A DNA stretch of 64,000 bases from a virus. Taxonomy: Duplodnaviria; Heunggongvirae; Uroviricota; Caudoviricetes. Under the pieces are notes generated by a model. The model was not told where the DNA came from, searched no databases, and saw nothing but the letters and a program-made list of their open reading frames with translations. The position numbers and the translations under genes are program-made. Each line of letters opens with the position of its first letter. Positions within the stretch are counted from its first letter, which is position 1. The DNA is taken from the IMG/VR virus record IMGVR_UViG_3300037466_000352; one strand, written 5' to 3'. This document shows positions 1,676 to 63,008 of this stretch, in pieces.

Positions 1676-1720
1676 CCTCGAAGTCCTAAATATTCCGTCA
1701 ACAACTTCGGGAGTTGCGGA

Positions 1721-2395
1721 ATGTTTCTGGCACCAAAAATCAACAAGTGTGTCGCGCAACTACATCATGAGTTGTCCACCCGATCTGTGATCGGACACGA
1801 CGAACTTCGTCAGGTCTTCTATGATGCAATCAAGCCACTAGGTGTTCGTGTGGCACTCATCAAAGATGATCTGCCGAAGAATGCTTTTGCGATGGGCGGT
1901 TTCTTCGAGATTGATAGGAAACGTCAACCGATTTGTGTCGAACTATTCGTTTCGAAGAAATCTGATTCGCTTCGGATTACCAAGAAATGGGTAGCTAACA
2001 CGATGTTCGTGTTGTACCAGACCCTTAGTCACGAACTGATTCATAAGCAGCAGTATTGCCATCGCAAACCCGATTCCGTGGTTTGGTTGATCCCGTTAGG
2101 GGATGGCGCAGAGATGGACGAACAGCAAGCCTATCTGGCCGAACTGGACGAGATTGATGCCTATGCGCACGACATCGCCCTGGAACTGGTCTTCTACCAT
2201 CCCGACGATCACATGGAAGTTCTCAGAACCATGCGGTCGCCCAAGATTTCGTCATGGTTGCTGTATCTAACAACCTTCGAAGGAACAGAGTGGACAGAGA
2301 TTCATCACCGCCTGTTGAAGAAGGTATTCGAACATCTCACCCGGATACGGGATAACGGAGAACAATACGCATGTACGAAAACGTCTTCTCGTTGA
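1721..2395 (+). CDS. Hypothetical protein with an HExxH motif (putative zinc metallopeptidase-like)
   Basis: 224 aa. LSHELIHKQ (HExxH). RBS gggag at 1709; CTAAATA motif about 30 nt upstream. Confidence 0.55.
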   Translation: MFLAPKINKCVAQLHHELSTRSVIGHDELRQVFYDAIKPLGVRVALIKDDLPKNAFAMGGFFEIDRKRQPICVELFVSKKSDSLRITKKWVANTMFVLYQTLSHELIHKQQYCHRKPDSVVWLIPLGDGAEMDEQQAYLAELDEIDAYAHDIALELVFYHPDDHMEVLRTMRSPKISSWLLYLTTFEGTEWTEIHHRLLKKVFEHLTRIRDNGEQYACTKTSSR

Positions 2396-2602
2396 TGGAC
2401 CTCATACAAATCGTCAGCATTGTGTTTGTGTGCTGGTTCTGTTACCGTACCGGCGTACAGAACGGAGCACGCGCAGTCTTGTTGAAGCTTGAGGAAGCTG
2501 GTGTTGTGAAGATACAACGACCGGAAGATTCTGAAGAAAGTGATTGACCAAGGTTGGGAATACGTGTACAATGTAGTTTCAGTAGTTGATTGTTAGAGAA
2601 AC

Positions 2603-2675
2603 GGGTTGATAGTTTATCTGGCTAAAACACCGGACTCCAAACCCGGAGTGCAAGGTTCAAGTCCTTGTCGGCCCG
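2603..2675 (+). tRNA. tRNA-Trp (anticodon CCA); a genomic CCA follows at 2676-2678
   Basis: Hand-folded cloverleaf. Acceptor GGGTTGA/TCGGCCC with two G-U pairs; D-stem GTTT/AAAC; T-arm CAAGG-TTCAAGT-CCTTG; anticodon loop CTCCAAA. The anticodon stem has one A:C mismatch. Confidence 0.65.
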
Positions 2676-2923
2676 CCAAGATCATTCACAACTGCCGCTT
2701 GATGGCTAAGGAACTATCGTGTAACACGATCTGTATCACCATAGACATTTGAGAACACAGAACAGCAGTACCATTTCCCGTTGGTGGTCGGGATATAGTA
2801 ACCGCCTTCGCCCTGCAACCTTAACGGGTCGCGAGAGAACACCACACGGAGAGACGCAAAAGTTCGTCGATAGTCCGTGCAGCACGCAGGCAACCTTGAT
2901 AAACCTGAAGAGAAGTAGAGAAG

Positions 2924-3184
2924 ATGACGAAACAAGTTGCACCCCTGTCGCAAAAGGCACAAATCGAAAAGCTGCTTCGCCGTGGTCGTGTCCTGACCGC
3001 AGCGCAACTGCGTGAACTCGGTGTCACCAAGCCGAGCGCCCGCATCTGCAATCTGCGCAACGATGGCCTGAAGATCGTCAGCACGACGAACCGTCAAGGC
3101 ACCCCGGCATGGAAGCTGGACAAGTCCCTGTCGGTCGCGAAGACTGCATACGCAGCACCGCGCGCATTCGGTTTCAGCTACTAA
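2924..3184 (+). CDS. Small putative winged-helix DNA-binding protein
   Basis: 86 aa, basic. LTAAQLRELGVTKPSARICNLRNDGLKI resembles an HTH plus wing. GC-rich region with overlapping spurious ORFs on both strands. Confidence 0.4.
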   Translation: MTKQVAPLSQKAQIEKLLRRGRVLTAAQLRELGVTKPSARICNLRNDGLKIVSTTNRQGTPAWKLDKSLSVAKTAYAAPRAFGFSY

Positions 3185-3250
3185 GCTAACACCAACCGAT
3201 CAAACATCCGTGGGCTTCGGCCCACTTGAGAACTGTCTAAGACATCCTAC

Positions 3251-3724: not shown

Positions 3725-3815
3725 TTCACGCGTGACGTGTAGGTAGGGAAAGAAAACGGAGCATGGGAAGCGAAAAGGAACTGAAGCCCTAGTAGCGGAT
3801 ACCGCACCGGCCTAT

Positions 3816-3877
3816 ACAAGCCCAACGTTGGACATCTGAAAAAGGTGTTGACAACGTTGGGCTTTTTCGTTTATGAT
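3816..3877 (+). promoter_or_regulatory. Hairpin (AAGCCCAACGTTG...CAACGTTGGGCTT + T-run) acting as a terminator, overlapping a TTGACA-N18-TATGAT promoter for the 3911 gene
   Basis: 13-bp inverted repeat with TTGACA (3848-3853) in its loop. -10 TATGAT about 3872. Contains the CCAACGTTGG palindrome twice. Confidence 0.5.
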
Positions 3878-3910
3878 TCACGCATTGGTTCACGAAACGG
3901 AGTGTCGGAC

Positions 3911-5125
3911 ATGAAGATTGCTCAATACCGCGTCGAAGAATTCCTGAAGAAGATCGCTACGTTCAACCGCAAGGCGGTGAAGCTGGGTCTACCGGAAGTC
4001 AAGGCCGTCAAGATCGGTTCCGAACTGAAGGAAATAAAGGATAAGGACGATGCGGGCAATCATGTCACGTACTACATCGAAATCGAAGAGTACGACATTC
4101 AGGGTGAAATCCCGCGCATCGGCGGTTGGGCTATTCACTCGAAGGTCGAACCCGCCATCGAAGGCCAAGGAAACTTCGTCTACACGAACAAGGGTTTTAA
4201 GCCAGTCGAACGTCTGCGTACGACGAAGCTGATCTGCGAACATTGCAATATGGCACGTGCCCGTTCGCTGGTGTACTTGCTTCAGAACATGGAGACGGGC
4301 GAACAAAAGCTGGTCGGTAAGTCGTGCCTGAAGGACTTCTTGCCGAACCTGAACGTCACAGAAGTGCTTGGCTATCTGGAATCGCTGGAAAAGCTGAACG
4401 CACCGTACAGCCACTACGACGAAGACGGTGAGTACATCGAAGGTTCGAATCTTCCCCGCGCTGCATGGGTGTACCCGGTGTCGATGTTGGTTGCTGAATC
4501 GCTGATTCTGATTCGCAAGTACGGCTACGTTTCGCAAAAGGCCGCTCGCGAATACTTCGAGAAGTCGGCTGGTGAAGGCGAACTGTGCCCTACCTCTTCT
4601 CTGTTGGCAAACACGTCGCGTCAACGCGAAAAGCTGTACAGCAAGGAAGAAATCGCCGAAGTGTTTGGCGATGGCAAGGTTGACGCCTGTATCGATTGGA
4701 TCAAGGCACAACCGGCCAAGACGGACTTCTTCTACAATCTGCAACTGGCTATCGGTCAACAGGGCGCACCGTGGAAGATGTTCTCGTTCGTTGCAGCCGG
4801 TGTCAACATGTGGCTGCGTGCCGTCGAAGGCGAAGTCGCCAAGAAGCTGACGAAGGCTGACAAGAAGAACGAGTACATCGGTGAAGTCGGCCAACGACTG
4901 GTGTTCAACGACCTGATTATCACCCGCGAGTATGTGAGCGAAGGCCAATGGGGTTCGACGTTCATCACAACGTTGGAAGATTCTGAAGGTCGGTCGCTGG
5001 TCTGGTTTGCCTCGAAGCGTGTCGGTGACATCGGTGCGAAGGTCAGCATCAAGGCCACGGTCAAGGAACACAAGCAGTACAACGACCTGAAGCAAACGGT
5101 CATTACGCGCGGCGCGAAGATTTAA
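3911..5125 (+). CDS. Hypothetical protein (about 404 aa)
   Basis: The track ORF 3845..5125 is trimmed to the internal ATG (MKIAQY...) with RBS ggag. No family recognised. Confidence 0.55.
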   Translation: MKIAQYRVEEFLKKIATFNRKAVKLGLPEVKAVKIGSELKEIKDKDDAGNHVTYYIEIEEYDIQGEIPRIGGWAIHSKVEPAIEGQGNFVYTNKGFKPVERLRTTKLICEHCNMARARSLVYLLQNMETGEQKLVGKSCLKDFLPNLNVTEVLGYLESLEKLNAPYSHYDEDGEYIEGSNLPRAAWVYPVSMLVAESLILIRKYGYVSQKAAREYFEKSAGEGELCPTSSLLANTSRQREKLYSKEEIAEVFGDGKVDACIDWIKAQPAKTDFFYNLQLAIGQQGAPWKMFSFVAAGVNMWLRAVEGEVAKKLTKADKKNEYIGEVGQRLVFNDLIITREYVSEGQWGSTFITTLEDSEGRSLVWFASKRVGDIGAKVSIKATVKEHKQYNDLKQTVITRGAKI

Positions 5126-5147
5126 CGGGGGTAGTGCAGGGAGGTTT

Positions 5148-5175
5148 AGGGGGACTTCGGTCCCCTCTTTTTTTG
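5148..5175 (+). terminator. Rho-independent terminator
   Basis: AGGGGGACTTCGGTCCCCT stem-loop followed by a T7 run. Confidence 0.8.
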
Positions 5176-5460
5176 ATAGGGGTGAAAGATGCTGAGAAAG
5201 GTGAAGATCGAGTGCGAGAACTGGTACTGGAACCGAAAGTTGCAGCTACGCCTGTTCGAACTCGGAGTGGCGTGGCCGATGGGTACAGATCGATGTCAGA
5301 CGGTCTGGAACAGTCGGAGAAGGGGCAAGTACCTCTTCCTACAACAGAACCCTCAGAACGGCTCATTTTGGCTTGGATGGGGTTCAGAACGTGACTTCCA
5401 AGACTGCCCGTTTGAAGCGGTGACGGCCAAGGGATTTCTGAACGAACTGACGGAGAAACA

Positions 5461-5871
5461 ATGATCGTCAAAGCAGTGGATCGTGCATACCGGGTGATGC
5501 ACGAACGGGGCTATAACCGCGTGTATTGGGCTATAGACCTTCACGGGGTATGCCTGCATTCAAACTACGAGACAGGCGGTTACGCGTGGATTAACGAAGA
5601 CGCACCGCGTGTCCTGAAGCTTATCTCGGATCGACCGGAATCCGTCATCATCCTATGGTCATCGGTACATGATCGCGAGAAGTCCGACATCATGCAGTTC
5701 TTTGGGAAACATGGGATTGCCGTTCACGGCATCAACGCGAACCCATATGAAGGTAATGATGTCGTGTGCGTTGAAGAGAAGTTCTACTTCTCGATCCTGT
5801 TGGACGACAAGGCAGGGTTCGATCCGAAAACTGACTGGAAGTCCATCGAAGACTACCTGAAGTGGGTGTGA
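5461..5871 (+). CDS. Hypothetical protein
   Basis: 136 aa. RBS ggag 8 nt upstream. Confidence 0.55.
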   Translation: MIVKAVDRAYRVMHERGYNRVYWAIDLHGVCLHSNYETGGYAWINEDAPRVLKLISDRPESVIILWSSVHDREKSDIMQFFGKHGIAVHGINANPYEGNDVVCVEEKFYFSILLDDKAGFDPKTDWKSIEDYLKWV

Positions 5872-5877
5872 AGACGA

Positions 5878-5913
5878 GGGAACGCTAAATAGTAGGACAT
5901 CCTATGCGTTCCC
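5878..5913 (+). promoter_or_regulatory. Inverted repeat GGGAACGC/GCGTTCCC enclosing a CTAAATAG late-promoter-like motif
   Basis: 8-bp arms flank a 20-nt loop that contains CTAAATA (5885-5891) and a nested AGGACATCCT palindrome. Confidence 0.4.
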
Positions 5914-6056
5914 GTTGTTGACTTTGAGTTACGGGACACCGGGTGTTGTTGTACATAGTTGTTTCATATGTCTGCGCTGCGCGCATCTCGCTTCGCGAGA
6001 ACAACTTGTTCGTGGATTAGTAAATAACCATGAACCCCGAAAACCATTATACCAAG

Positions 6057-6084
6057 CTCCCAAAGTTGTGTCAAGCTAAATATT
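6057..6084 (+). promoter_or_regulatory. CTCCCAAAGTTGT box followed by AGCTAAATATT (putative late promoter of the 6114 gene)
   Basis: AGCTAAATATT is identical to the 11-mer upstream of the endolysin gene (52573). It lies about 31 nt upstream of the ATG. Confidence 0.5.
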
Positions 6085-6113
6085 GACACTAACACACTCA
6101 AGGATTCCCAACA

Positions 6114-6635
6114 ATGTCAAATTGGTCCCTCAAGAACCCACCTTCGTACCGCACCGATGCTGTTGCTGGTCCCGAGGGCTGGAAAGACCCGGTAACGGGT
6201 GAAGTGCTGGTCGCAATCGGTGGTCTGACGACCAAGCAAGTTCCGTTGGCAAGCTGGCCTACATTCACGCTGGCAGTCCCCGCAAACGGCACGTATCCGG
6301 CTGGTACACAACTGACCTTCACAGTCACTGCATCGGCGGCTGTAGCTGTGGCTGGTACTCCGTCTATCGACGTGACGTTCGGCACCACGGTTCGCCAAGC
6401 ACAGTTCACCGGTATTGACGTGACGAACAAGATTCTCACGTTCGAATACACGACTGTTGCTGGCGACGACGCACCTAGCGGTATCGTGGTCAACAACACC
6501 ATCGATCTGAACACAACTGGTAAGGGCAAATCTCGCGTCGTAGACGAATTGTCGCTGAACAGCGGTGAAACGATCCCTGGTGCTTCCCTGACGTTCACGG
6601 TTCCGGCTACGACTGGCATCATCACTACGGGCTAA
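6114..6635 (+). CDS. Putative virion/structural protein, beta-rich and Thr/Val/Gly-rich (Ig-like)
   Basis: 173 aa. Strong RBS aagga. Low-complexity beta-strand-like composition. Late-type motif upstream. Confidence 0.55.
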   Translation: MSNWSLKNPPSYRTDAVAGPEGWKDPVTGEVLVAIGGLTTKQVPLASWPTFTLAVPANGTYPAGTQLTFTVTASAAVAVAGTPSIDVTFGTTVRQAQFTGIDVTNKILTFEYTTVAGDDAPSGIVVNNTIDLNTTGKGKSRVVDELSLNSGETIPGASLTFTVPATTGIITTG

Positions 6636-6642
6636 TTGAACG

Positions 6643-7077: not shown

Positions 7078-7080
7078 AGA

Positions 7081-13389: not shown

Positions 13390-13396
13390 CTAAATA
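13390..13396 (+). promoter_or_regulatory. CTAAATAG late-promoter-like motif upstream of the spanin genes
   Basis: CCTAAATAGTC. It is followed by a perfect 11-bp stem hairpin (13411-13437). Confidence 0.4.
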
Positions 13397-13469: not shown

Positions 13470-13853
13470 ATGTTCACACTCTCTGAAATCAAATTTGTCG
13501 TTGTGTCGGCTGCACTGATTGGCGCTATCGGCGGTTCGTTCTTCTACGGTCAGCATACGCAGAAGGAATTCGACGGGCTTCTGGAAGCGAAGCAACAGCA
13601 AATCATGCAGACCAAGATCGACGCCGAGACGGATCGCAGGAACCAGATTGCGAATGCTTTCGAAGACAAGCTGGACAACCTGCACATCGTCAACACGACG
13701 ATCAATCGCACGGTGAAGACCGAACTTCAGAAGCAAATCTACACGGACTGCAAACTGCCGGATTCCGGCGTTGCACTTATCAACAATAATGCTGACCTGT
13801 TGAACGCATCACGTCACGGATCGGCATCTGCACCTGTAGCTGCATCCCAATGA
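13470..13853 (+). CDS. i-spanin (Rz-like; N-terminal TM plus periplasmic coiled coil)
   Basis: 127 aa. N-terminal TM (VVVSAALIGAIGGSFFYG), coiled-coil remainder, directly upstream of a lipoprotein gene. Confidence 0.6.
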   Translation: MFTLSEIKFVVVSAALIGAIGGSFFYGQHTQKEFDGLLEAKQQQIMQTKIDAETDRRNQIANAFEDKLDNLHIVNTTINRTVKTELQKQIYTDCKLPDSGVALINNNADLLNASRHGSASAPVAASQ

Positions 13854-19000: not shown

Positions 19001-19051
19001 CAGCCATAAATATCGTGAAGATGAACCAATGAATAAGGAGAACATCTTCAT

Positions 19052-19207
19052 ATGGCAACCACACATTACGAGTGCAATGAATGCGAGGCAGTATTCGCAG
19101 TCAAGCACACCCTGGACAAGAACTACTATCGTGTCCTCAATTGCCCCTTTTGTGGGTCAGAATTAGACAACGAAGAATACGATGTAGATGACGAAGTAGA
19201 CGAATGA
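19052..19207 (+). CDS. Small zinc-ribbon protein (51 aa), below the track's 60-aa cutoff
   Basis: ATG 19052 with RBS aaggag. CNECE...CPFCG. ATAAATA motif about 40 nt upstream. ATGA overlap with the next gene. Confidence 0.5.
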   Translation: MATTHYECNECEAVFAVKHTLDKNYYRVLNCPFCGSELDNEEYDVDDEVDE

Positions 19208-19425: not shown

Positions 19426-19440
19426 AACTACGAAGCATAA

Positions 19441-19476
19441 ATACCCGTACACTCACAATGTACGGGTATTTTCTTA
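19441..19476 (+). terminator. Rho-independent terminator
   Basis: ATACCCGTACA-CTCACAA-TGTACGGGTAT followed by TTTCTT. Confidence 0.7.
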
Positions 19477-19523
19477 TGTGGCTTTATCAAGGACAGGAAC
19501 AAACCGAGATTCCTGAAGGTATG

Positions 19524-19877
19524 GTCGGATTCGTCTATCTGATTACCGATCACGCGAACAACAAGTTGTATATCGGCAAGAAGCTTTACCACTTCCAGAA
19601 ACAGAAGCAAGTCAAAGGTAAAAAGAAGAAGATCAAGGTCGAGTCGGACTGGAAGGAATACTACGGTTCCAATGACGCACTGAAGGCCGAAGTCGAGAAG
19701 CATGGCCCCGAGAAGTTCACACGGGAAATCCTGCACCAATGCCAAGGCAAGGGCGAGATGGGCTATTGGGAAGCCTACGAGCAATTTTCGCGCCATGTCC
19801 TACTGTCTGACGAATACTACAACGGCTGGATCAGCGCAAAAATTACCAAGGCACATGTTGCCAAGTTGCGCAAGTAG
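19524..19877 (+). CDS. GIY-YIG nuclease-domain protein (free-standing homing-endonuclease-like)
   Basis: Trimmed to MVGFVYLITDHANNKLYIGKK (GIY-YIG). Lys-rich linker. Confidence 0.6.
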   Translation, partial: VGFVYLITDHANNKLYIGKKLYHFQKQKQVKGKKKKIKVESDWKEYYGSNDALKAEVEKHGPEKFTREILHQCQGKGEMGYWEAYEQFSRHVLLSDEYYNGWISAKITKAHVAKLRK

Positions 19878-20533: not shown

Positions 20534-20591
20534 TTGACAAACTCACATCTGGTCCGTAAAATCATTCCCAACTTTGGTAGGAGATTATTTC

Positions 20592-23802: not shown

Positions 23803-24375
23803 ATGTCAACACAATTCCTCGCAGCCGATTTGCATCTCGGCCACAAGGGTGTCACAACGTTCCTCGCGCCGAATGGCGTAGACAAGCTTCGTCCGTGGGA
23901 TGATCCCGAAGTCATGGATGAAGCATTGATCGAGAACTGGAATAGCGTCGTGCGCCCGACCGACAAGGTGTATGTCCTCGGCGATGTAGTCCTGAACAAG
24001 AAGCATCTTCACAAGGTTGGACGCCTTAACGGTAAGAAGCATCTTATCAAGGGCAACCACGACATCTGCAAGCTGAAAGAATACGAACCGTACTTCTACG
24101 AAGTGTCGGCATGCCGTGCGTTGAAGGATATGATCTTGACGCACATCCCCGTTCACCCGGCCAACATCGGGCGATTCGGTGTGAATGTCCACGGCCATCT
24201 TCACGCACACAAGGTTCGTCTCCCGAACGGCGAAATCGATCCTCGATACCTGTGCGTTTCGATGGAACAGATTGCCTATCATCCGATCACGCTCGAAGAA
24301 GTACGCGAGCAATGCGACCGTCGTCGTCAAGCATTCCCCGAGATGTTCGGTGTGAATGAATGGCATGACGCATAA
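23803..24375 (+). CDS. Calcineurin-like metallophosphoesterase (Ser/Thr phosphatase family)
   Basis: DLHLGH, GDVV, GNHD and GHLH motifs. Confidence 0.75.
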   Translation: MSTQFLAADLHLGHKGVTTFLAPNGVDKLRPWDDPEVMDEALIENWNSVVRPTDKVYVLGDVVLNKKHLHKVGRLNGKKHLIKGNHDICKLKEYEPYFYEVSACRALKDMILTHIPVHPANIGRFGVNVHGHLHAHKVRLPNGEIDPRYLCVSMEQIAYHPITLEEVREQCDRRRQAFPEMFGVNEWHDA

Positions 24376-24409
24376 ATAGGGAATACATTCATTCCCGCAC
24401 ACGAAATAC

Positions 24410-25126
24410 ATGCGACTTCACATTCCAGAAATCCTTGATCTGGTGTCAAAAGCACAACGACACGAAGACAAGGTGCGCTTGCTGCGCGAACACCAATCCC
24501 TTCCGCTTGAACAGGTTCTTCAGTACAACTTCCACCCGGACATAGAAATGAATCTACCCGAGGGAGAAGCGCCGTACAAGAAGGACACGGGCATTCCTCT
24601 TGGCAAGTCGGAAACGAACCTCTACCGCGAAGGCCGTCGTCTCTACGTATTCCTAAAGGGCCAAGCACCGAACCTGAAGCCGTTCAAACGCGAACAATTG
24701 TTCATCGAACTGCTTGAGGGCATCCACTGGTCCGAGGCAGATATTCTTGTCGCAGTTAAGGACAAGCGGCTAACCGATCTGTATCCCGGCGTGACGTACG
24801 AAGCGGCCCGTGATGCGTTTGATCGACTGCTTCCGGCAGAACCGCCAAAGCCTATCGTCAAGGCCGTCAAGCTTGCGATTCCTGATCTGGAAGCATCGCT
24901 CGCTCGCGCTGGCATTGCCGAAAAGGAACAAGGTGAGCGCCCTTTGGCCCGACCGGCTTCTTCTACGAAGACGACAGTGGATTCAGCTTCGGAACAACCG
25001 AAAGAGAAGAAGCCGATGTCAGAAGCACGACGTGCCGGTCTACTGAAGGCGCAAGCCGCACGACGCGCAAGCGCAGCCGCCAAGAAAGCAGCGAAGGAAG
25101 CCGAACAAGCTTCACAAGCCGAGTGA
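24410..25126 (+). CDS. Hypothetical protein with a basic Ala/Lys-rich C-terminus
   Basis: 238 aa. ATAAATA motif about 31 nt upstream. Confidence 0.55.
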   Translation: MRLHIPEILDLVSKAQRHEDKVRLLREHQSLPLEQVLQYNFHPDIEMNLPEGEAPYKKDTGIPLGKSETNLYREGRRLYVFLKGQAPNLKPFKREQLFIELLEGIHWSEADILVAVKDKRLTDLYPGVTYEAARDAFDRLLPAEPPKPIVKAVKLAIPDLEASLARAGIAEKEQGERPLARPASSTKTTVDSASEQPKEKKPMSEARRAGLLKAQAARRASAAAKKAAKEAEQASQAE

Positions 25127-26968: not shown

Positions 26969-27696
26969 CGATCCTATCCCTCAAAGAGTTCAAGACCGGC
27001 CTCGAATACCACGACACGTTGAACCCGGCGCTTTGGAACGGCGACGAACTGAAGCCCGAAGTCTATGCGAAGTTGATGAACGTCGCGAACGACTTCATCG
27101 CTTTCTGTGGCATCGATCCGACCAAGGTGTCAGACATCGTAATGACAGGTAGTAGTGCGAACTACAACTACAGCCCGCAGTCCGACATCGACCTACATGT
27201 GATCGCGGTGTATGAACCCGATCACATGAACGAAGCGGGTATCAGTGTGCAGAATGCGTTCAATGCGTTCAAGACGCTGTACAACGAGTCGAGGCATATC
27301 TCGATCTATGGTTTCCCGTTGGAACTGTACGTGCAACCGACGAGCGAACACTTCACGTCCAACGCGGGCGTGTATTCACTAGAGAAAGAGTCATGGGTTC
27401 AGAGGCCAGTTAAGCAGCACGTCGATCTTGATGATCGAGAGATTGAACTGAAGGCCCAGGCAGTCATACACGAAATCAAACAGATCGTGCATGGCAAGAT
27501 GGCTGGCGTACTCGCAAGGCCAAGGATCGATGCTGTGAAAGCAAAGATTCGGCAATTGCGAGCGGCAGGATTGGAAGCCGGTGGTGAGTTCGGAATCGAG
27601 AACCTTGCGTTCAAGGCAATCCGAAATTCCGGCTATCTGGACAAGCTATCGAAATATGCGAGCGCAGTAAAGGATTCTACGCTGTCGCTTTCATGA
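26965..27696 (+). CDS. Pol-beta-superfamily nucleotidyltransferase-fold protein
   Basis: 243 aa. TGSSANYNYSPQSDIDLHVI (GS-x10-SDID) motif. Confidence 0.6.
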   Translation: MTILSLKEFKTGLEYHDTLNPALWNGDELKPEVYAKLMNVANDFIAFCGIDPTKVSDIVMTGSSANYNYSPQSDIDLHVIAVYEPDHMNEAGISVQNAFNAFKTLYNESRHISIYGFPLELYVQPTSEHFTSNAGVYSLEKESWVQRPVKQHVDLDDREIELKAQAVIHEIKQIVHGKMAGVLARPRIDAVKAKIRQLRAAGLEAGGEFGIENLAFKAIRNSGYLDKLSKYASAVKDSTLSLS

Positions 27697-28189
27697 GTTC
27701 ACTACGTTTTCCTTCGTAGTGAACAGGAACGTCATGGTGGTTCAACACAACTGCCATGCCTCTATTGACGTATCCGCTGTACCCATGATCGACCACGGCG
27801 CGTTCGAATGCGTTGCCGTGGTCTTCTCCGTTGTAGACGTGCTTCGCAGCCGTCTCACGAACTTCTTTGGCATGTTCCTGTGAAGCAGTATCCGGGTTGT
27901 ACATGTTGTGCAGCTTCGCGCTGTACGTGTGTTGCCCAAGTCCCGATTCGTGGACCTTCGATACCTTTTCGCCTTCGTTGGCGTGGTAGAAGTAGACACG
28001 ACTCTTGATGCGTGCGTCCTTCGTCTCCGACAGGCGTTTCGCTTCAGCACCCTTGATTCCCGTCCCATAAATCCGACCGTCGAGACTGGTCAACCCTTCC
28101 TTGTGCGAATAGTGCAGGCCGTGGATCGTCTCGCCCTTGACCGGCGCTGCGACCTCGCGCTCGGTGATGAACTGTTTGAATGATTGCAT
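27677..28189 (-). CDS. Hypothetical protein on the minus strand (putative late gene)
   Basis: 170 aa. Convergent with the NTase gene, overlapping it by about 20 nt. On the minus strand CTAAATAAT lies about 28 nt upstream of its ATG. Confidence 0.55.
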   Translation of the reverse strand: MQSFKQFITEREVAAPVKGETIHGLHYSHKEGLTSLDGRIYGTGIKGAEAKRLSETKDARIKSRVYFYHANEGEKVSKVHESGLGQHTYSAKLHNMYNPDTASQEHAKEVRETAAKHVYNGEDHGNAFERAVVDHGYSGYVNRGMAVVLNHHDVPVHYEGKRSELMKATA

Positions 28190-28227
28190 TGACTGTTCCC
28201 AATGTTGATGGTATTATTTAGACTCAT
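28189..28227. promoter_or_regulatory. Divergent promoter region: + strand TTGACT-N17-TATTAT, and minus-strand CTAAATAAT late-type motif on the same AT tract
   Basis: TTGACTGTTCCCAATGTTGATGGTATTATTTAGAC. Its reverse complement contains CTAAATAATA. Confidence 0.5.
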
Positions 28228-30424: not shown

Positions 30425-30473
30425 TTGACAAGTAACCAACGTTGGGATAGTATAACACCTGTCCCAACGTTGG
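30425..30473 (+). promoter_or_regulatory. Promoter TTGACA-N17-TAGTAT flanked by two CCCAACGTTGGG palindromes
   Basis: CCAACGTTGGGA at 30435 and CCCAACGTTGGG at 30461 flank the -10. The same palindrome occurs twice at 3820-3863. Confidence 0.55.
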
Positions 30474-30497
30474 GACTCACTTACAGGAGAGCATCAC

Positions 30498-45833: not shown

Positions 45834-46178
45834 ATGAATACTACCGAAAGTCGCGATGAAGCTATCGCTAGATCGGCGGTCGGTGCTGGTGAAGTATGGA
45901 TGAATGATGCGTTCGAAATGATGCACCGTTACGCGAGCGAACATCATGAATTCATGACCGAAGATGTGAGGAAGTTCTCCCTCGAATCAGGTCTTCCCGC
46001 ACCAAAAGATAATCGCGCATGGGGTGCAGTTACCATGCGCGCTATCAAGGCCGGTCTTATTCAGAAGAACGGGTTTGGTGTAACGAAGGTTTCGAGTAAT
46101 GCCAGACACATGTTGCAGTGGAAAAGTCTGATTTGTGGTGCGCCGCCGCGCATCAATATCGAAGACCTTTTCAGTTGA
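45834..46178 (+). CDS. Hypothetical protein
   Basis: The track ORF 45693 overlaps the upstream gene, so it is trimmed to ATG 45834 (MNTTESR...). Confidence 0.5.
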   Translation: MNTTESRDEAIARSAVGAGEVWMNDAFEMMHRYASEHHEFMTEDVRKFSLESGLPAPKDNRAWGAVTMRAIKAGLIQKNGFGVTKVSSNARHMLQWKSLICGAPPRINIEDLFS

Positions 46179-46255
46179 CAAAGATGGGAGTCCGTGATAG
46201 GATTCCCATTGTCGTTTATGGGTTAAATAGTTGATCCACATTAACGCATACAAAC

Positions 46256-47134
46256 ATGAAAACATTCCACGAACTTCGGCGCTATCTGAACGATCTGCCG
46301 CTGATTAGCGAAGAGCTTCACCAATCGATCCAGAACGTCCTGAACGCGGATCACATCGAGCCACAGTACAAGCTTCATCATATCACGACTGCGATCCGTG
46401 GCGCGATCAAGCGTGGCGAGGACACTGGCCTCGAAGACGCGAAACCCAAGAAGGGTTCGTCTCGCGCCGTGTTCTTTCCAAAGGAACCGACGAAGCTGAA
46501 GATCGATGGTCATGACACGCAGATGCACACGGCCCTGAAGGTAGCGTTCCCCGGTCAACTGGACAAGTATCGGCACAGTGACGAACCGCTTCTCGGCGAG
46601 GAACAGAACCGCGTGGAAGGCGATCACTGGACCAACAGCCAATACGGCGTCCTGCGCCAAGGTGATCGACACGACGAGTACCATACGAACGAACACGGGT
46701 TCCTTGCGCCGATGCTGCATGCCCACGACGAGGGACACTATGTTCACTTCGGGAAGATCGAACCTGTCAAGGCTGGCGATTTCAAGGCGCACACAAAGGC
46801 ACCTGGATTCGAGAAGGGAATTTCGCACGACGAGATGTTCGATTACCTGAACCATCACTACAGCGAAGCGCACGGCCAGAAGCACTACGGCAAGACAAGC
46901 CCGGAACGTATCGAGCAACTTGAACAGCACCCGATGCTGGAACGTATGCACGATTGGATGCTGAACACGGGCGCGCACCCGGCTGACCTGAACAAGCGCA
47001 ACATGGGTGTCTGGACTCACCCGGTGACTCAGAAGAAGCACATCGTGGTCAGCGACTACGGATTCACTGGCGACGTTGCAAAGATGTACGGCGAGCGCCG
47101 GAAGCGTTCGTTCCAAGCAAACCGAGGTTACTAA
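46256..47134 (+). CDS. His-rich hypothetical protein (paralogue-like to 53133..54410)
   Basis: 292 aa, about 10% His with many HxxH / H-G-H patterns. TTAAATAG motif about 30 nt upstream. Confidence 0.55.
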   Translation: MKTFHELRRYLNDLPLISEELHQSIQNVLNADHIEPQYKLHHITTAIRGAIKRGEDTGLEDAKPKKGSSRAVFFPKEPTKLKIDGHDTQMHTALKVAFPGQLDKYRHSDEPLLGEEQNRVEGDHWTNSQYGVLRQGDRHDEYHTNEHGFLAPMLHAHDEGHYVHFGKIEPVKAGDFKAHTKAPGFEKGISHDEMFDYLNHHYSEAHGQKHYGKTSPERIEQLEQHPMLERMHDWMLNTGAHPADLNKRNMGVWTHPVTQKKHIVVSDYGFTGDVAKMYGERRKRSFQANRGY

Positions 47135-51420: not shown

Positions 51421-51457
51421 GGAAGTGCTAAATAATTTTGTGATGTTTAGCACTTCC
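51421..51457 (+). promoter_or_regulatory. 12-bp perfect-stem hairpin (GGAAGTGCTAAA...TTTAGCACTTCC) containing a GCTAAATAAT late-type motif
   Basis: No T-run follows. The motif lies about 40 nt upstream of the FmdB ATG. Confidence 0.45.
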
Positions 51458-51470: not shown

Positions 51471-51731
51471 ATGCCTCTCTACGATTACCAGTGCAAAGAA
51501 TGTGGTCACACATTCGAACGCACACTCCGAATTGCAGACATGAAGCTTCCAGAAAGCGAAACATGTCCTTCCTGTAACAAATCAGACACCGTTCAAAAAA
51601 CTCTTGCCGGTGCGCCGCCGATTGGCGATCCGGTTCGTTTGGGCGTCCGCAAACTTCCAGGTGATTTCAAAGAAGTCCTACAAAAAATACATGAAAGGAA
51701 CTACAGAAGTAACCTAAACCAGAAGTGGTAA
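51471..51731 (+). CDS. FmdB-family zinc-ribbon protein
   Basis: N-terminal MPLYDYQCKECGHTFE...CPSC. Confidence 0.7.
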   Translation: MPLYDYQCKECGHTFERTLRIADMKLPESETCPSCNKSDTVQKTLAGAPPIGDPVRLGVRKLPGDFKEVLQKIHERNYRSNLNQKW

Positions 51732-52560: not shown

Positions 52561-52607
52561 AGGGTTCCTTGCAGCTAAATATTCATTATTGGCTATGAGG
52601 AACCCAA
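52561..52607 (+). promoter_or_regulatory. SD-sequestering hairpin (AGGGTTCCT / AGGAACCC) with AGCTAAATATT late-type promoter in its loop, upstream of the endolysin
   Basis: The 3' arm includes the endolysin SD GAGGA. The loop carries CTAAATAT (52575-52582). The arrangement matches T4 gene e early/late translational control. Confidence 0.6.
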
Positions 52608-53120
52608 ATGTCCTACTCCCTTTCACAAGCTGGCGCACAACTGATCGGTCAGTTCGAAGGTCTTCGGTTGACCGCGTACTATGACTCGGTAGGCGTCCTC
52701 ACCATTGGCTACGGCACGACGAATGCGGTTCTTCCGCAGTCGATGAAGTTCGGCCCCGGCACGACAATCACACAAGCCCAAGCAGTAGAGTACCTTATGT
52801 ACGGCGTGAACAATGTGTTCGCACCGAAGGTAAATGCTTTGGTCAAAGTGCCTCTCACGCAAAACGAATTCGATTCGCTGGTGTCCTTCGCGTATAACGT
52901 TGGTTCTGGCAATCTCGCATCCTCAACTTTGCTTCGTCTGTTGAACGCGGGCCAGTACGGCGCTGCGCAGAAGCAATTCCTTGTCTGGAACAAGGCCGGT
53001 GGTGTCGCGATGCGTGGATTGACGAACCGTCGCCTCGGAGAAGCCGCGAACTTCGGTCCCCTAACACGTCAGCAACTAATCGACCAGTGCTTGAACGGCG
53101 TCGATCCCGCAAACCCATAA
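52608..53120 (+). CDS. Endolysin, GH24 (T4 lysozyme-like) muramidase
   Basis: 170 aa. EGLRLTAYYDSVGVLTIGYGTT (catalytic E, D, T region). Confidence 0.85.
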   Translation: MSYSLSQAGAQLIGQFEGLRLTAYYDSVGVLTIGYGTTNAVLPQSMKFGPGTTITQAQAVEYLMYGVNNVFAPKVNALVKVPLTQNEFDSLVSFAYNVGSGNLASSTLLRLLNAGQYGAAQKQFLVWNKAGGVAMRGLTNRRLGEAANFGPLTRQQLIDQCLNGVDPANP

Positions 53121-55907: not shown

Positions 55908-56237
55908 ATGACATATCTGACAAAAGAAGAGATTGTAGACGAACTTTTTGCTGCGTTGACCGAAGAAGACAAGCGCTCGCTGAAGACATATTACAAGTCC
56001 GAAGACGAACTCGGAATCTTGCATCACGGCTACGGCACACACATCCGCAACACATACAAGCTGTGGGAAGCAGCGAATCCGCTGACTCACGACTGGTTCA
56101 AAGACTGCGCGTTCGCTGAACGCGATGGTGTCAAGCACGCCTATATGATTGATGGCGTCGATCATCACCCGCAGCATCCCGATCAGGTGTCATTCGACAT
56201 CATCAAGGCCGTTTGGCACAAGGTAGTCGATGTCTGA
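55908..56237 (+). CDS. Hypothetical protein
   Basis: 109 aa ORF. Confidence 0.5.
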   Translation: MTYLTKEEIVDELFAALTEEDKRSLKTYYKSEDELGILHHGYGTHIRNTYKLWEAANPLTHDWFKDCAFAERDGVKHAYMIDGVDHHPQHPDQVSFDIIKAVWHKVVDV

Positions 56238-56454
56238 AGAGAAGTGGATAGAAGCAGGGCCGTTGCCGAACGGGCACTACCTGTTCTACAAAGAAAACGA
56301 AGTCGGTGGTCGCACCTACATGACCGATGAATGTGGTTGTGGTGTCGTGATCTGGGATACGGCGATCACGGATTATCACACCCTGTTGGCCGCAATTGTT
56401 CATGAAGACCATTTGCGTATCAAAGAGTTTTACGAGAAAGAGCATGCAAGCTGA
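56230..56454 (+). CDS. Hypothetical protein
   Basis: 74 aa ORF. Confidence 0.45.
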   Translation: MSEEKWIEAGPLPNGHYLFYKENEVGGRTYMTDECGCGVVIWDTAITDYHTLLAAIVHEDHLRIKEFYEKEHAS

Positions 56455-56719
56455 AGTACAAGAAGTCCACGCAACAGACGAATTTCTGATTACCAAGGAA
56501 TTCGCATCGGCAGAACAGTTCTCGATGTTCATCGAAGAGACAGCCATCAAAGAAGGTATGGACCTGATCGATGTCATTCTGAATTACTGCGAAGAGAAAG
56601 ACATCGACGTTGACGTTACCGCCAAACTCGTCACCAAGTCACTCAAAGAAAAACTCGCCGTCGAATTCCAAGAACGGAAGATGATGCGCTCCGAATCCGG
56701 CACACTGGAAGACCTGTGA
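56444..56719 (+). CDS. Hypothetical acidic protein
   Basis: Trimmed to ATG 56444 (MQAEVQE...). Confidence 0.45.
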   Translation: MQAEVQEVHATDEFLITKEFASAEQFSMFIEETAIKEGMDLIDVILNYCEEKDIDVDVTAKLVTKSLKEKLAVEFQERKMMRSESGTLEDL

Positions 56720-56849: not shown

Positions 56850-57344
56850 ATGCTTTCATTCAAAGAATTCCTGCAAGAGAAGTACGGTACGACCGGAACC
56901 TATGCAGCCCTGAAGTTCGATCAACCGTCCACGGATGACATCGAAGCTTATCAGGCACACAACAAGATTCCGAACCCGGTCCCAGCGGACAAGCTACACG
57001 TAACATTGCTGTATTCGCGTAGACACATGGCCGGGTTCAAACCGCGCGGGCGACTAGAATCGCTCATAAAGGCTCGCGTCGCCGGGTTCGATGTCTGGGA
57101 TACCCAAGACGGAAAGAAGGCACTGGTGGCCCGTTTGGACGCCCCGGAACTCGTTGCACGCCATCGCGAACTGATGGACAAGTACAACGGGACTTACGAT
57201 TTCCCAGAATACAAGCCGCACACCACGTTGTCATATGATGTCGGCCCAGATTTCGATCACCAGAACCTTCCTCCATTTGGTCCTGTCCTCACGCTCGACA
57301 ACGAGTTCGGTGAAGACCTCGACCTCGATTGGAAGGCTGATTGA
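56850..57344 (+). CDS. 2H phosphoesterase-superfamily protein (LigT / 2',3'-cyclic phosphodiesterase-like)
   Basis: Two H-x-T-x motifs (HVTLLY and HTTLSY) about 80 aa apart. Confidence 0.65.
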   Translation: MLSFKEFLQEKYGTTGTYAALKFDQPSTDDIEAYQAHNKIPNPVPADKLHVTLLYSRRHMAGFKPRGRLESLIKARVAGFDVWDTQDGKKALVARLDAPELVARHRELMDKYNGTYDFPEYKPHTTLSYDVGPDFDHQNLPPFGPVLTLDNEFGEDLDLDWKAD

Positions 57345-58022: not shown

Positions 58023-58615
58023 CACCATACCAAGTCGGCAAAGCATACATAGCCCTGAAGGCGCACTTCACCAAGGACTCGTATGACGTAATCAAGTCGA
58101 ATGGACGGATCAACTATCCGCGTGCCAAGTTCGAAGAACGGAAGGACCGCCATCGTTGCGAGAAGATGGCTATCAACATGCGCGACGAAGAGATTGTCAA
58201 GTTCTTCGTCGCCAACTTCTCACGCAAGCCAGACTATAGCGGACTGTTTGATGACCAGTCCGAGACACGCTACAGGGAATGGTGCGGCTACATCGAATCG
58301 CTGTCGTACAACTATGGGAATGAAGTCAAGTCATTGCTACTTGATGCAAAAGATTCCCAGATGTGTTATAATGACGTTTTCGTTGGTGCTGAAGGTCAAC
58401 ATCCTCCCGTTCTCAATGCGTACATGGGGAAGCAAATCTCCATCGAGACGTTCATCATTCTGGACCGCCTAAATAGGTTTACGGACAACATAACAGTCGA
58501 TGTGGTGTCAGAAGACACGCTTCGCATCGCTCGCAAGTACAGTCCCTTCCTGAAGGTCGATCTGGAAACCTATGACAACATCACAAGAACCGTCAGAGAA
58601 CAAGTGTTCGAATGA
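58019..58615 (+). CDS. Helicase loader (T4 gp59 homologue)
   Basis: Trimmed to ATG 58019. Matches T4 gp59 segments (YDVIK..., ISIETFIILDRLNRF vs ISFETFILLDSFLNI). Confidence 0.7.
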   Translation: MTPYQVGKAYIALKAHFTKDSYDVIKSNGRINYPRAKFEERKDRHRCEKMAINMRDEEIVKFFVANFSRKPDYSGLFDDQSETRYREWCGYIESLSYNYGNEVKSLLLDAKDSQMCYNDVFVGAEGQHPPVLNAYMGKQISIETFIILDRLNRFTDNITVDVVSEDTLRIARKYSPFLKVDLETYDNITRTVREQVFE

Positions 58616-58640
58616 GGTAAAAGAACTGCAAGAGGAAGTC

Positions 58641-58772
58641 ATGTACTTGCAGGCAGAGAACGACAAGCTGTGGGCCAAGATCGAAGAGATGGAAGGTAAC
58701 TACGCGTCGCTGTTCGACCGCATCCGGTCATGGCCGTTCATTAAGATCAACGTTCCCGCTTTAGCGCAGTAA
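58641..58772 (+). CDS. Small coiled-coil protein (uncertain start)
   Basis: Track ORF 58572..58772. The first ATG after the gp59 stop is 58641. Confidence 0.3.
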   Translation: MYLQAENDKLWAKIEEMEGNYASLFDRIRSWPFIKINVPALAQ

Positions 58773-58939
58773 TGAGTAAGACAAGGCACTACCGTCCCGA
58801 AGAACGAAGCATTCATCGGGCGAAAATGGTCGCAGATAAGGCGACTAAATATAAGCATGACATCTTCAAAGTCACAGAAGAACCAGACGATGAAGACGAG
58901 TACGTGATGATCGCCGAAGATTTTGGCGACATTGAATAG
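58772..58939 (+). CDS. Hypothetical small protein (55 aa), not in the track
   Basis: ATG 58772 overlapping the upstream stop. Acidic C-terminus. Confidence 0.35.
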   Translation: MSKTRHYRPEERSIHRAKMVADKATKYKHDIFKVTEEPDDEDEYVMIAEDFGDIE

Positions 58940-59036: not shown

Positions 59037-60029
59037 ATGGCAAAGTCCCTCTCGGAAATGCGCAAGTCGCGCGGCAACTTCGAACAACTTACCAAAGAAA
59101 TCGAGAAGCAAGGTAAGAAGAACTACGACAAAGAAGATGACCGCTTCTGGCAGTGCGCAGTAGACAAAGCTGGCAACGGCCAAGCTGTCGTCCGATTCCT
59201 GCCCGCCCCGCAAGGCGAAGACCTTCCGTTCGTCCGTATGTGGTCGCACGGTTTCCAAGGTCCGACTGGCAAGTGGTATATCGAAAACTCGCGTACCACG
59301 CTTGGTGAAAGCGATCCGGTAACGGAACTGAACAACGAACTCTGGGCCTCGAAGGTCAAAGAGAACGAAGAAATCGCTCGCAAACAAAAGCGCAAGCTGT
59401 CCTACTACAGCAACGTGCTTATCATCTCTGATCCGGCCAACCCGGAAAACGAAGGTCAAGTGAAGATTTTCCGCTACGGCGCGAAGATTTTCGAGAAGCT
59501 TGAAGCAGCAATGAAGCCGGAATTCGATGACGATCCGACCTTCAACCCGTTTGACTTCTGGGACGGTGCGAACTTCCGCCTGAAGATCACGAAGAAAGAT
59601 GGTTTCGCGAACTTCGACAAGTCCTCGCTCGCAGAGTCGAAGCCCCTGTCGGATGACGACGAAGAACTGCAAAAGATTTGGGACAAGTGTCACTCACTTG
59701 CAGCGATTGTCGCACCGGATCAGTTCAAGAGCTACGACGATCTGAAGAAGCGCCTGAACTTCGTCCTCGCAACTGGCGCACCCGGCAAGAATGCCGAACA
59801 GTCGGAAATCGATCAAGACGACGAAGCATTCATCCGTCAGCAATCACGTTCGACCGCTGACCGCCTGAAGAAAGAAACCAAGGACGCACCGAACGCAGAG
59901 CAATTCGATGACGTTCCACCGTTCGATACGGAAAAGCCGAAGACGACCGCTGCGAAGTCCACGGCCAAGAAGGTCGAAGAAGAAGCAGACGACGACCTCG
60001 AATACTTCCGAAAGCTTGCTGGTGAGTAA
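59037..60029 (+). CDS. Single-stranded DNA-binding protein (T4 gp32 homologue)
   Basis: 330 aa. KAGNGQAVVRFLPAP...GKWYIE matches the gp32 core. Acidic C-terminal tail. Confidence 0.9.
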   Translation: MAKSLSEMRKSRGNFEQLTKEIEKQGKKNYDKEDDRFWQCAVDKAGNGQAVVRFLPAPQGEDLPFVRMWSHGFQGPTGKWYIENSRTTLGESDPVTELNNELWASKVKENEEIARKQKRKLSYYSNVLIISDPANPENEGQVKIFRYGAKIFEKLEAAMKPEFDDDPTFNPFDFWDGANFRLKITKKDGFANFDKSSLAESKPLSDDDEELQKIWDKCHSLAAIVAPDQFKSYDDLKKRLNFVLATGAPGKNAEQSEIDQDDEAFIRQQSRSTADRLKKETKDAPNAEQFDDVPPFDTEKPKTTAAKSTAKKVEEEADDDLEYFRKLAGE

Positions 60030-60088: not shown

Positions 60089-60113
60089 AAAAGCCCGCGA
60101 AAGCGGGCTTTTT
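60089..60113. terminator. Bidirectional Rho-independent terminator between convergent gene 32 and the minus-strand operon
   Basis: AAAAGCCCGC-GAAA-GCGGGCTTTTT with T/A runs on both sides. Confidence 0.85.
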
Positions 60114-60123
60114 CTTTGGTGCT

Positions 60124-62040: not shown

Positions 62041-62051
62041 TTAGATAACCT

Positions 62052-62249
62052 TTATGTGTGTTGCTGTTGCTTACGGAGAAGTTCGTTTCGTTCTGCCTCT
62101 TCTCGAATGTGTTGGACAAGCTGACCGACGTAAATTTCTCGCTCCCACGGCAACATCTCGTCCAATTCGGTCAACGAATATTTATGGAACTGGACGAGAC
62201 TGAAGTTCAACTTGTAGTAGTTGAACAAACTGTCATGTGAGAGCATCAC
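62052..62249 (-). CDS. Hypothetical protein
   Basis: 65 aa. Overlaps the upstream gene's stop (ATGA on the minus strand). Confidence 0.45.
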   Translation of the reverse strand: MMLSHDSLFNYYKLNFSLVQFHKYSLTELDEMLPWEREIYVGQLVQHIREEAERNELLRKQQQHT

Positions 62250-62944
62250 CCGAAAAAAGCTTCGATGCCTTCCAGTGTGTATTGTGTATCTTTCTCACAG
62301 TGCGGGCACTTGTCAGTGAACGTATGCTTCAACACCGGCATAGTTGCGAAGAAGTTCTCGATCTGTTCGAACTGCTGCGATGTTAGTGATTCAAGGAAAG
62401 CCCGAACTTCTTCGAGTGGTTCGTCCTTGGTCGGGTGAACTTCTTCGTCAGTGAAAACAGTCTTGATGCACTTCATGATTGTTTCGTAGACCGTCTCGAC
62501 GCTATAGTTCTTGTTCAGATAATCGAGTTGTTCCGTTGTTGGATATTCCATCTCTACACCGAGATTGTCTGCCAACATGATCTTCGTGCTATGTCCATCT
62601 GTCTTGATAACTTTGACATCGGGAAGCTGAAGTCGATAATCGTGCTGCTGTTCACAGTGCCCACAAGTCAGAACCAAGTCAACCGATTCCCCAACTGATC
62701 GAATGCGAATCTGCATGAACATGTATTCAAGGTCGAAGTTCGGCAAACTCTCGATGTCAAGCTTTCCGAATGAACACGTATCGACCACATTACGGACAGA
62801 CAACAGGATGTCCGCGTCGTTGCTCTGAAGTGCCATCAAGAGCGTCTTCTGTTCTCCGACCAACCAGGGACGACACTTGATCTTTTTCCCGGTGGATGGC
62901 AGTGTCAGTTCAAAGATAGGGTAGTTGTTGCGTGGCAGAGCCAT
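62246..62944 (-). CDS. Hypothetical protein with two CxxC pairs (zinc-ribbon); putative late gene
   Basis: 232 aa. CGHC...CPHC. The minus-strand CTAAATAG motif lies about 27 nt upstream of its ATG. Confidence 0.6.
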   Translation of the reverse strand: MALPRNNYPIFELTLPSTGKKIKCRPWLVGEQKTLLMALQSNDADILLSVRNVVDTCSFGKLDIESLPNFDLEYMFMQIRIRSVGESVDLVLTCGHCEQQHDYRLQLPDVKVIKTDGHSTKIMLADNLGVEMEYPTTEQLDYLNKNYSVETVYETIMKCIKTVFTDEEVHPTKDEPLEEVRAFLESLTSQQFEQIENFFATMPVLKHTFTDKCPHCEKDTQYTLEGIEAFFG

Positions 62945-62964
62945 GAAATAGTCCTCAGTGATGA

Positions 62965-63008
62965 TCGACTATTTAGTTGTTGACACGCATTCCCAACCTT
63001 GGTAATAT
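62965..63008. promoter_or_regulatory. Divergent region: minus-strand CTAAATAG late-type motif (62969-62976) and + strand conserved promoter TTGACA-N17-TAATAT (62980-63008)
   Basis: GTTGACACGCATTCCCAACCTTGGTAATAT, followed by CATCGACA and RBS aggagg. Confidence 0.6.

Follow-up and report, generated by a model that had tools for sequence, protein, structure and literature searches.

A (C/A)TAAATA motif as the predicted late promoter core of an uncultured clade of T4-like phages

Genes of the window and positions of the motif

The stretch analyzed here (the window) comprises 64,000 nucleotides (nt) of the uncultured tailed phage IMGVR_UViG_3300037466_000352. It corresponds to positions 78,202–142,201 of a 172,805-bp contig (Logan SRR35106392_106749), which was also read for 10 kb on each side (contig 68–151 kb, 83 kb in total). 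Our subject is a short motif, (C/A)TAAATA, that stands upstream of many start codons in the window. From its sequence, distribution, and conservation, we consider it very probable (roughly 0.88) that the motif is the −10-type core of the late promoters of this phage, read by the late sigma factor gp55 with gp33 and gp45. The finding is real, but its kind is already known: CTAAATA was predicted earlier for Aeromonas phage Aeh1 (PMC1524935), a precedent that an initial annotation of the window did not recognize.

Judged by the identities of gp41, gp61, gp59, gp32, gp26, gp51, and gp33, the window (∼51% guanine plus cytosine, GC) belongs to a T4-like phage. The gp41 helicase (263–1675) is 55% identical to gp41 of cyanophage S-SSM7 and 53% identical to that of Synechococcus phage DSL-LC03. 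The window also encodes gp61 primase, ribonucleotide reductase, NAMPT, an NMNAT/Nudix protein, DNA ligase, gp59, gp32, Acb1, a T4-type lysozyme (the endolysin), and an Rz-like spanin. On the minus strand, the baseplate hub proteins gp26 (62944..62246) and gp51 (62246..62052) are encoded one directly after the other, followed by a gene of 621/638 residues that ends at 60124. By major capsid protein, the nearest cultured phages are Methylophilales phage Melnitz (63% identity) and Pelagibacter phage Mosig together with cyanomyoviruses (∼60%). No near-identical DNA was found among GenBank phages when 8 kb of the window were compared by megablast. Public assemblies hold a clade of 168–177-kb contigs in which gp26 and primase are 64–81% identical to those of the window. 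A scan of Joint Genome Institute metagenomes with the primase returned one 98%-identical fragment and otherwise 38% relatives. The comparisons below use stretches from this clade (L004, L087, L210–L212, L220–L222, L224–L234, and L285–L287), of which L212 and L287 lie on one contig, as do L222 and L285.

The following sites, together with a divergent pair in the right flank described below, are strong candidates for late promoters. CTAAATA(T) at 1686..1692 (plus strand) lies right after gp41 and 28 nt before the ATG of gene 1721–2395 (224 residues); in L220, L221, L222, and L087, CTAAATA(T/C) is found 26–28 nt before the orthologous ATG. CTAAATA(T) at 6076..6082 (plus) is 31 nt before the ATG of gene 6114–6635 (173 residues), and (C/A)TAAATAT is kept ∼32–33 nt before the orthologous ATG in L220–L222. 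ATAAATA(G) at 24372..24378 (plus) precedes the DUF6433 gene (24410–25126) by 31 nt and is conserved as (C/A)TAAATAG in L224, L226, L227, and L228. On the minus strand, CTAAATA(A) at 28215..28221 lies 25 nt before the ATG of gene 28189..27677 (170 residues); the heptamer is invariant 25–26 nt before the ATG in five genomes, in which the proteins are 56–82% identical. CTAAATA(A) at 51428..51434 (plus) is 36 nt before a zinc-ribbon gene (51471–51731, 86 residues) that is followed by PhoH. It occupies the 5′ arm and loop of a hairpin at 51421–51457 (z = −4.76), and both motif and hairpin are kept in L231 and L234. The endolysin gene (52608–53120) has CTAAATA(T) at 52575..52581 (plus), 26 nt before its ATG, and CTAAATAT is kept 26–32 nt before the ATG in L210, L212, L231, and L234. 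At a distance of 25 nt before gp26 stands CTAAATA(G) (62970..62976, minus); L004, L210, and L211 share it, and L212 has ATAAATAG in its place, with leaders that diverge in sequence.

Two of these loci carry further features. Within gp51, ATAAATAT at 62178 (minus) has the same position in three relatives, which may reflect a promoter role or coding constraint. Read by eye, the segment 28190–28248 contains a sigma70-like site, TTGACT-N17-TATTAT, on the plus strand that faces gene 28249. The minus-strand motif, CTAAATAATA, appears to be the reverse complement of its −10 region (TATTAT), and the palindrome around the motif would carry the Shine–Dalgarno (SD) sequences of both divergent genes, one per arm.

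The copies at 13390, 5885, 58469, and 58845 are probable late promoters. CTAAATA(G) at 13390..13396 (plus) lies 73 nt before the spanin gene (13470–13853), a distance that the initial annotation gave correctly. In relatives, (C/A)TAAATA is found 21–63 nt before the spanin ATG, with an intervening hairpin in two genomes that is missing from two others. A distal CTAAATA at 5885..5891 (plus), at the end of gene 5461–5871 and ∼220 nt before gene 6114, sits within a GGGAACG...CGTTCCC hairpin; it is invariant in a four-genome alignment, and its target is uncertain. CTAAATA(G) at 58469..58475 (plus) lies inside the gp59 gene, 96 nt before a small open reading frame (ORF; 58572–58772), and is a candidate internal late promoter. 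It is read as CTA-AAT-AGG, codons that account for 6% of Leu, 24% of Asn, and 3% of Arg codons in this phage. Five genomes keep the word unchanged, while codons next to it show synonymous variation and AGG (Arg) gives way to AGT (Ser). CTAAATA(T) at 58845..58851 (plus), inside a small ORF and 185 nt before gp32 (59037–60029), is a candidate gene 32 late promoter; it uses the minor codons ACT-AAA-TAT, is invariant in four genomes, and is retained in another context in L212. The rare-codon spelling and the invariance of these in-gene copies therefore point to selection on the DNA word itself.

Three further sites are weak candidates. ATAAATA at 19006..19012 (plus) lies 39 nt before a 51-residue zinc-ribbon gene (19052–19207), and its TAAATA is kept in L220–L222. 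ATAAATA at 19437..19443 (plus) is 14 nt before a SegE-like GIY-YIG gene (19458–19877) and overlaps a terminator-like hairpin; (C/A)TAAATAC is conserved in relatives. TTAAATA(G) at 46223..46229 (plus) precedes gene 46256–47134 (292 residues) by 26 nt and lies close to a sigma70-like site at 46175. In its place, L230 has CTAAATAG, and L231 and L234 have ATAAATAA farther upstream.

When rechecked in the sequence, every copy listed by the initial annotation was present at its coordinates on either strand, as was the 11-mer shared by the endolysin and gene 6114 copies (AGCTAAATATT, at 6074 and 52573). The copies at 5885, 19437, 58469, and 58845 had been missed. The spacing of 27–45 nt to the ATG that it reported has to be revised: at nine sites we measured 25–39 nt from the last A, or 33–46 nt from the first base of the octamer. 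The first base is C at most of the listed sites but A at 19006 and 24372 and T at 46223.

Distribution, conservation, and gene targets

The window contains 10 copies of CTAAATA against 1.92 expected, and none of 100 shuffles reached 10; for HTAAATAD, 14 copies stand against 4.8 expected, again a count that no shuffle reached. Only 10% of the window is intergenic by our gene calls, whereas 8 of the 10 CTAAATA copies and 13 of the 17 TAAATA copies fall there, and the eight intergenic CTAAATA copies are oriented toward the next gene. TAAATA is the most intergenic-enriched of all 6-mers. It also ranks first of all 6-mers for position relative to starts, with 9 of 17 copies lying 18–45 nt upstream on the sense strand (P = 2.5e-10); the corresponding figure for CTAAATA is 6 of 10 (P = 1e-7). 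These values bear on the suggestion that the pattern arises by chance or as a by-product of AT-rich intergenic DNA and TAA stops. One site is in keeping with that suggestion, since the TAA of the 24372 motif is the stop codon of gene 23803–24375. The shuffles, the positional ranking, the invariance of the motif at orthologous sites amid drifting flanks, and its retention with rare codons inside genes already refute it, and we give it practically no credence.

The conservation extends to at least seven related ∼170-kb genomes, in which (C/A)TAAATA is kept at orthologous places while flanking bases drift; this holds for every site compared. A consensus was derived from 61 clade sites, in which TAAATA is invariant by construction and which are not independent because many are orthologues. 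The preceding base is C in 41, A in 14, G in 4, and T in 2, and the consensus reads (C/G)(C>A)TAAATA(G/T)T. The distance from motif to ATG is 16–42 nt, with a median of 28 nt. No conserved column was found upstream of −2 in these sites. A −35 element was not detected either: the best TTGACA match 15–19 nt upstream scores 1–4 of 6 at nearly all sites, which is random background.

The lack of a −35 signal is relevant to a second explanation, in which host sigma70-type promoters use the motif as their −10 element and nothing about it is specific to late genes. The AT-richness of TAAATA and its loose likeness to TATAAT are in keeping with this, and the sites at 6076, 28215, and 62970 adjoin sigma70-like promoters. 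Those neighboring promoters, however, are on the opposite strand, and upstream −35 scores at the motif equal those at random positions. The phage moreover has its own family of TTGACA-N17-TATAAT promoters with a conserved spacer elsewhere, and the motif heads the gp22, gp23, and baseplate operons. We therefore regard a sigma70 origin as very improbable.

The genes behind the motif were examined beyond the window. In the right flank, two divergent CTAAATA copies share a 43-nt gap, each 27 nt from an ATG; one heads a gp48-like gene, behind which come Trx and gp53, and the other a TnsA-like gene with gp2 and gp4 behind it. Several genomes (L002 2700–3152, L211 4388–4903, and L212 4678–5370) carry insertions of TnsA-like and GIY-YIG endonuclease genes in the interval from the divergent late promoter to gp2. 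These insertions differ among clade members, and each brings or retains its own (C/A)TAAATA. In the left flank, 10 kb of replication genes (gp43, uvsX, Dda, and RNA ligases) contain no TAAATA. In three clade genomes (L285–L287), the motif lies 24–40 nt before genes for the gp22 scaffold, gp23, a gp19-like tail tube protein, and an ADP-ribosyltransferase; gp23 of these relatives, the major capsid protein, was identified by PF07068 (E = 7e-143). The late-gene orthologues that follow the motif overall are thus those of gp26/gp51, the endolysin, gp48/gp53, gp2/gp4, gp22, gp23, and the tail-tube protein. The initial annotation had held that the motif marks lysis, structural-like, and minus-strand genes, and within the window the endolysin and gp26/gp51 bear this out.

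The right-flank pair also helps to judge whether the motif acts in RNA, as a processing site or a translational-repressor site in the leader, instead of as a DNA promoter. Strand specificity, the fixed distance from the AUG, and the frequent location within predicted RNA hairpins are all features that such a signal might have. Nothing else able to act as a promoter was found in the 43-nt gap, which argues against a signal at the RNA level: both this gap and that upstream of gp26 leave no room for another upstream promoter, so an RNA containing the motif could not be made. A position 25–36 nt upstream is, by general reasoning, beyond the ribosome footprint, and the sequence is the same as the late-promoter variant predicted for a T4-related phage. 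An RNA-level function thus appears highly improbable, and a late promoter remains the reading that we prefer.

Late-transcription proteins and the endolysin leader

The initial annotation recognized no gp33 in the window. However, gene 56444–56719 (plus) encodes a 91-residue homologue of this late-transcription co-activator (PF16805, E = 6.7e-17) with the C terminus ...GTLEDL. It matches annotated cyanophage gp33 genes by tblastn and lies in the T4/cyanophage gene order gp33-gp59-gp32. Its start is overlapped by 11 nt by a 74-residue ORF (56230–56454) that is kept in relatives and has two CxC-like cysteines. No Pfam match was found for this ORF, which occupies the place of T4 dsbA relative to gene 33 (T4 arrangement: PMC2988020). 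Between gp33 and gp59 lies the gene for Acb1 (56850–57344; PF23474, E = 4e-38), a phosphodiesterase directed against the cyclic-oligonucleotide-based anti-phage signaling system (CBASS); the relative L087 has an Acb2/Tad1-like gene in its early region (5105–5404).

The search for gp55 and gp33 that the initial annotation had proposed succeeded within the window for gp33 only; gp55 was found in clade relatives. Three clade genomes that share the motif encode both gp55 and gp45, in the order uvsW-gp55-gp47-gp46-gp45-gp44. The clade gp55, a protein of 212 residues with the C terminus ...ITFDEEE, was identified through phrog_234 “late sigma transcription factor” (E = 1e-47), and gp45 through PF09116 and phrog_223 (E = 2e-63). 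Two contigs that bear these genes, one holding L212 and L287 and the other L222 and L285, are those with verified motif sites. The genes were reached by searching IMG/VR with the consensus of the early promoters described below, which gave few clade matches, one of them holding uvsW. An IMG/VR scan with cyanophage gp55 gave matches dominated by cyanophages. The matches to a codon-biased DNA pattern for NPFAYFTQ, a peptide of gp55, included many high-GC gp55 genes of T4-like type and none from the clade, in which gp55 carries KYIFSYYTT instead.

These proteins bear on the possibility that the late promoter is read by a factor other than gp55/gp33/gp45, or without dependence on the clamp. The clade gp55 is only ∼46% identical to cyanophage gp55, and the sequence of cyanophage gp33 gives no obvious sign of clamp binding (PMC2988020), as that possibility would allow. 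All three proteins are nevertheless present in the clade, and the acidic/hydrophobic tails of gp55 and gp33 (ITFDEEE and TLEDL) are of the clamp-binding kind. We noticed no further sigma-like gene within the 83 kb covered. We consider recognition by another factor most unlikely.

The T4-type late promoter proposed in the initial annotation is thus upheld by the T4 late-gene targets, the conservation, the lack of a −35 element, the lack of the motif from replication genes, and the presence of gp33, gp55, and gp45 in the clade. In the mechanism that we propose, host RNA polymerase core carrying gp55 would recognize (C/A)TAAATA, with gp33 as co-activator and the sliding clamp gp45 as activator. 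Transcription would begin ∼6 nt downstream of the motif and give leaders of ∼20 nt. Such promoters would head structural operons, and single copies would be embedded in early and middle regions before the endolysin, the spanin, and several genes of unknown function. Here, gp55 dependence, start site, late timing, and the translational gating discussed next are inferred.

The endolysin leader is predicted to form a 44-nt hairpin (52562..52605, plus; −21.7 kcal/mol, z = −4.29). Upstream of the motif is the outer 5′ arm (GGGTTCCTTG); the inner 5′ arm contains the motif, and the SD sequence GAGGAA is covered by the 3′ arm. The predicted late start, 6 nt past the motif, falls in the apical loop. 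This design is present in all five genomes compared; in L234 the outer stem is wholly different (GATTCTCGC/GCGAGAATC) yet pairs. If the RNA begins at the late start, the predicted unpaired fraction of the endolysin SD/AUG rises by 0.32–0.50, compared with 0.11 ± 0.14 for 119 control genes. We propose that early read-through RNA would be untranslatable because the hairpin buries the ribosome-binding site, whereas late RNA starting in the loop would be translated.

Weaker versions of this leader are predicted at gene 1721, gene 28189, and the zinc-ribbon gene at 51471 (z = −4.76). At gene 1721, the hairpin (1688..1726, plus; −15.4 kcal/mol, z = −3.97) has a 5′ arm that begins inside the motif and a 3′ arm that covers the AUG; relatives have a hairpin with other arm sequences that covers the SD instead. 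At the 51-residue zinc-ribbon gene, a hairpin at 19013–19054 (GUGAAGAUG...CAUCUUCAU) has the SD in its loop and extends as far as the AUG; four genomes have it, with changed arm sequences. A candidate gp26 leader hairpin (AAATAGTC/GACTATTT) was dropped, as it is not conserved in L210.

T4-like phages at large might have long used a late promoter within a hairpin that hides the ribosome-binding site, in which case the arrangement would not be peculiar to T-even coliphages. In this distant clade related to cyanophages, gating would apply to the endolysin and possibly to the gene after gp41, gene 28189, and the zinc-ribbon/PhoH unit, so that scattered genes of the early region are translated only from late transcripts; C at −12 would then reflect a co-evolved specificity of gp55. 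We put this wider proposal forward tentatively and think it somewhat more apt to fail than to hold.

Several observations weigh against the interpretation of the motif as a late promoter read by gp55 with gp33 and gp45, or against parts of it. Neither gp55 nor gp45 was seen in the 83 kb read of the phage's own contig (68–151 kb); as core genes of every T4-related phage (PMC2988020), both are expected elsewhere on it. At 13390, a strong hairpin between motif and gene lies downstream of the predicted start site. At 19006, four genomes differ in the base preceding TAAATA (A, T, G, or C), and the site at 46223 begins with T. The role of 19437 is ambiguous because AAATACCC doubles as the left arm of the terminator stem. 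At 28215, overlap with the sigma70-like −10 read by eye on the other strand could contribute to conservation of the motif. Two-sided changes in the endolysin hairpin affect 4 of 15 pairs, a count taken from five sequences and a poor MAFFT alignment. The gain in predicted accessibility is ∼0 at gp22 and gp23, and gp26 and gene 6114 likewise show no effect; translational gating is therefore predicted clearly for the endolysin only.

Early promoters, neighboring features, and relation to known systems

About 17 sigma70-type promoters were identified in the window, with the form TTGACA-N3-ATTCCCA-N4-TGGTAtAAT, most of them before small ORFs at 20–49 kb; they form a class apart from the late motif that would serve the early genes. 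They include plus-strand sites at 20534, 20990, 22060, 28499, 30425, 34349, 35618, 40246, 47219, 47853, 48299, 48680, and 62980. The word TTCCCANNNNTGG of this family occurs 10 times against 0.39 expected, and an element of this type also precedes gp45 in relatives. The conserved spacer contains an imperfect palindrome, TTCCCAAnnTTGG(G)AA, a possible operator at which a regulator would turn off early transcription. At 3820–3862 and 30436–30475, hairpins made of two copies of a self-complementary word, CAACGTTG (GCCCAACGTTG...CAACGTTGGGC), overlap TTGACA boxes; a T-run follows the first.

A minus-strand TTGACA-N17-TATAAT promoter at 6074..6046 adjoins the late motif at 6076 and is conserved. 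It faces leftward into ∼190 nt of conserved non-coding DNA (region 5872–6113) with a CUCGC-UUCG-GCGAG hairpin, all of which is kept in L220–L222. A small RNA may be encoded in this DNA, for which no Rfam match was found. The gap after gene 2371–2547 contains a tRNA-Trp (CCA) gene (2603–2678).

T4 late promoters carry TATAAATA at −13 to −6 and are read by gp55 with gp33 and gp45. The core found here matches this octamer at 6 of 8 positions and the Aeh1 variant at 7 of 7. As in T4, there is a TAAATA core and no −35 element, the sites lie close upstream of structural and lysis genes, and single copies occur in early regions (PMC2988020); the window encodes gp33, and clade relatives encode gp55 and gp45. 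Where T4 has TA, the two upstream positions here are (C/G)(C>A); the phage is also distant from T4, and function is predicted. For Aeh1, CTAAATA was predicted with (a/g)C at −13/−12 and C as a strong determinant at −12 (PMC1524935; PMC2988020). The heptamer is identical here, including C at −12, but Aeh1 belongs to another T4-like lineage with another host, A replaces C at about a quarter of our sites, and both assignments are in silico predictions.

The cyanomyovirus late promoters have an S-PM2-type consensus that is similar to that of T4. We examined a 50-kb segment of S-SSM7, in which (C/A)TAAATA stands 13–36 nt before 10 annotated starts (five with C and five with A) and TAAATA has a strand bias of 28:5; the C/A form thus seems typical of the cyanophage-related branch. 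The gene orders uvsW-gp55-gp47-gp46-gp45 and gp33-gp59-gp32 are likewise shared with cyanomyoviruses. In contrast, clade GC is 51%, compared with 35–42% at the cyanophage loci read, and because of this difference the motif stands out far more here. The 83 kb read also showed no photosynthesis genes, another difference from cyanophages.

In T4, a hairpin with an internal late promoter has been demonstrated for gene e and described also for soc, 49, and I-TevI (PMC3014915). The gene e structure is listed only for close T-even relatives, with none in Aeh1, 44RR, 25, or 31, and gene e is absent from the cyanophages examined in that review (PMC3014915). The predicted endolysin leader resembles that of gene e in that a hairpin sequesters the SD and a late promoter lies in the DNA encoding the 5′ strand; late RNA would therefore lack that strand. 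It differs in being a structure prediction and in having a sequence unrelated to that of T4. The resemblance suggests that T4-style silencing of lysozyme until late in infection may be older or more widespread than the literature records.

Our understanding of late transcription itself is unchanged by these results. With them, the variant with C at −12, until now predicted for Aeh1, would reach into the branch related to cyanophages. They also give, for ∼170-kb T4-like phages of an uncultured clade, a late-promoter model that can be put to use, (C/G)(C>A)TAAATA(G/T)T at ∼28 nt upstream of the ATG. By this model, genes of unknown function can be sorted from sequence into late and early; genes 1721, 6114, 24410, 28189, and 46256 would be examples of the late class.

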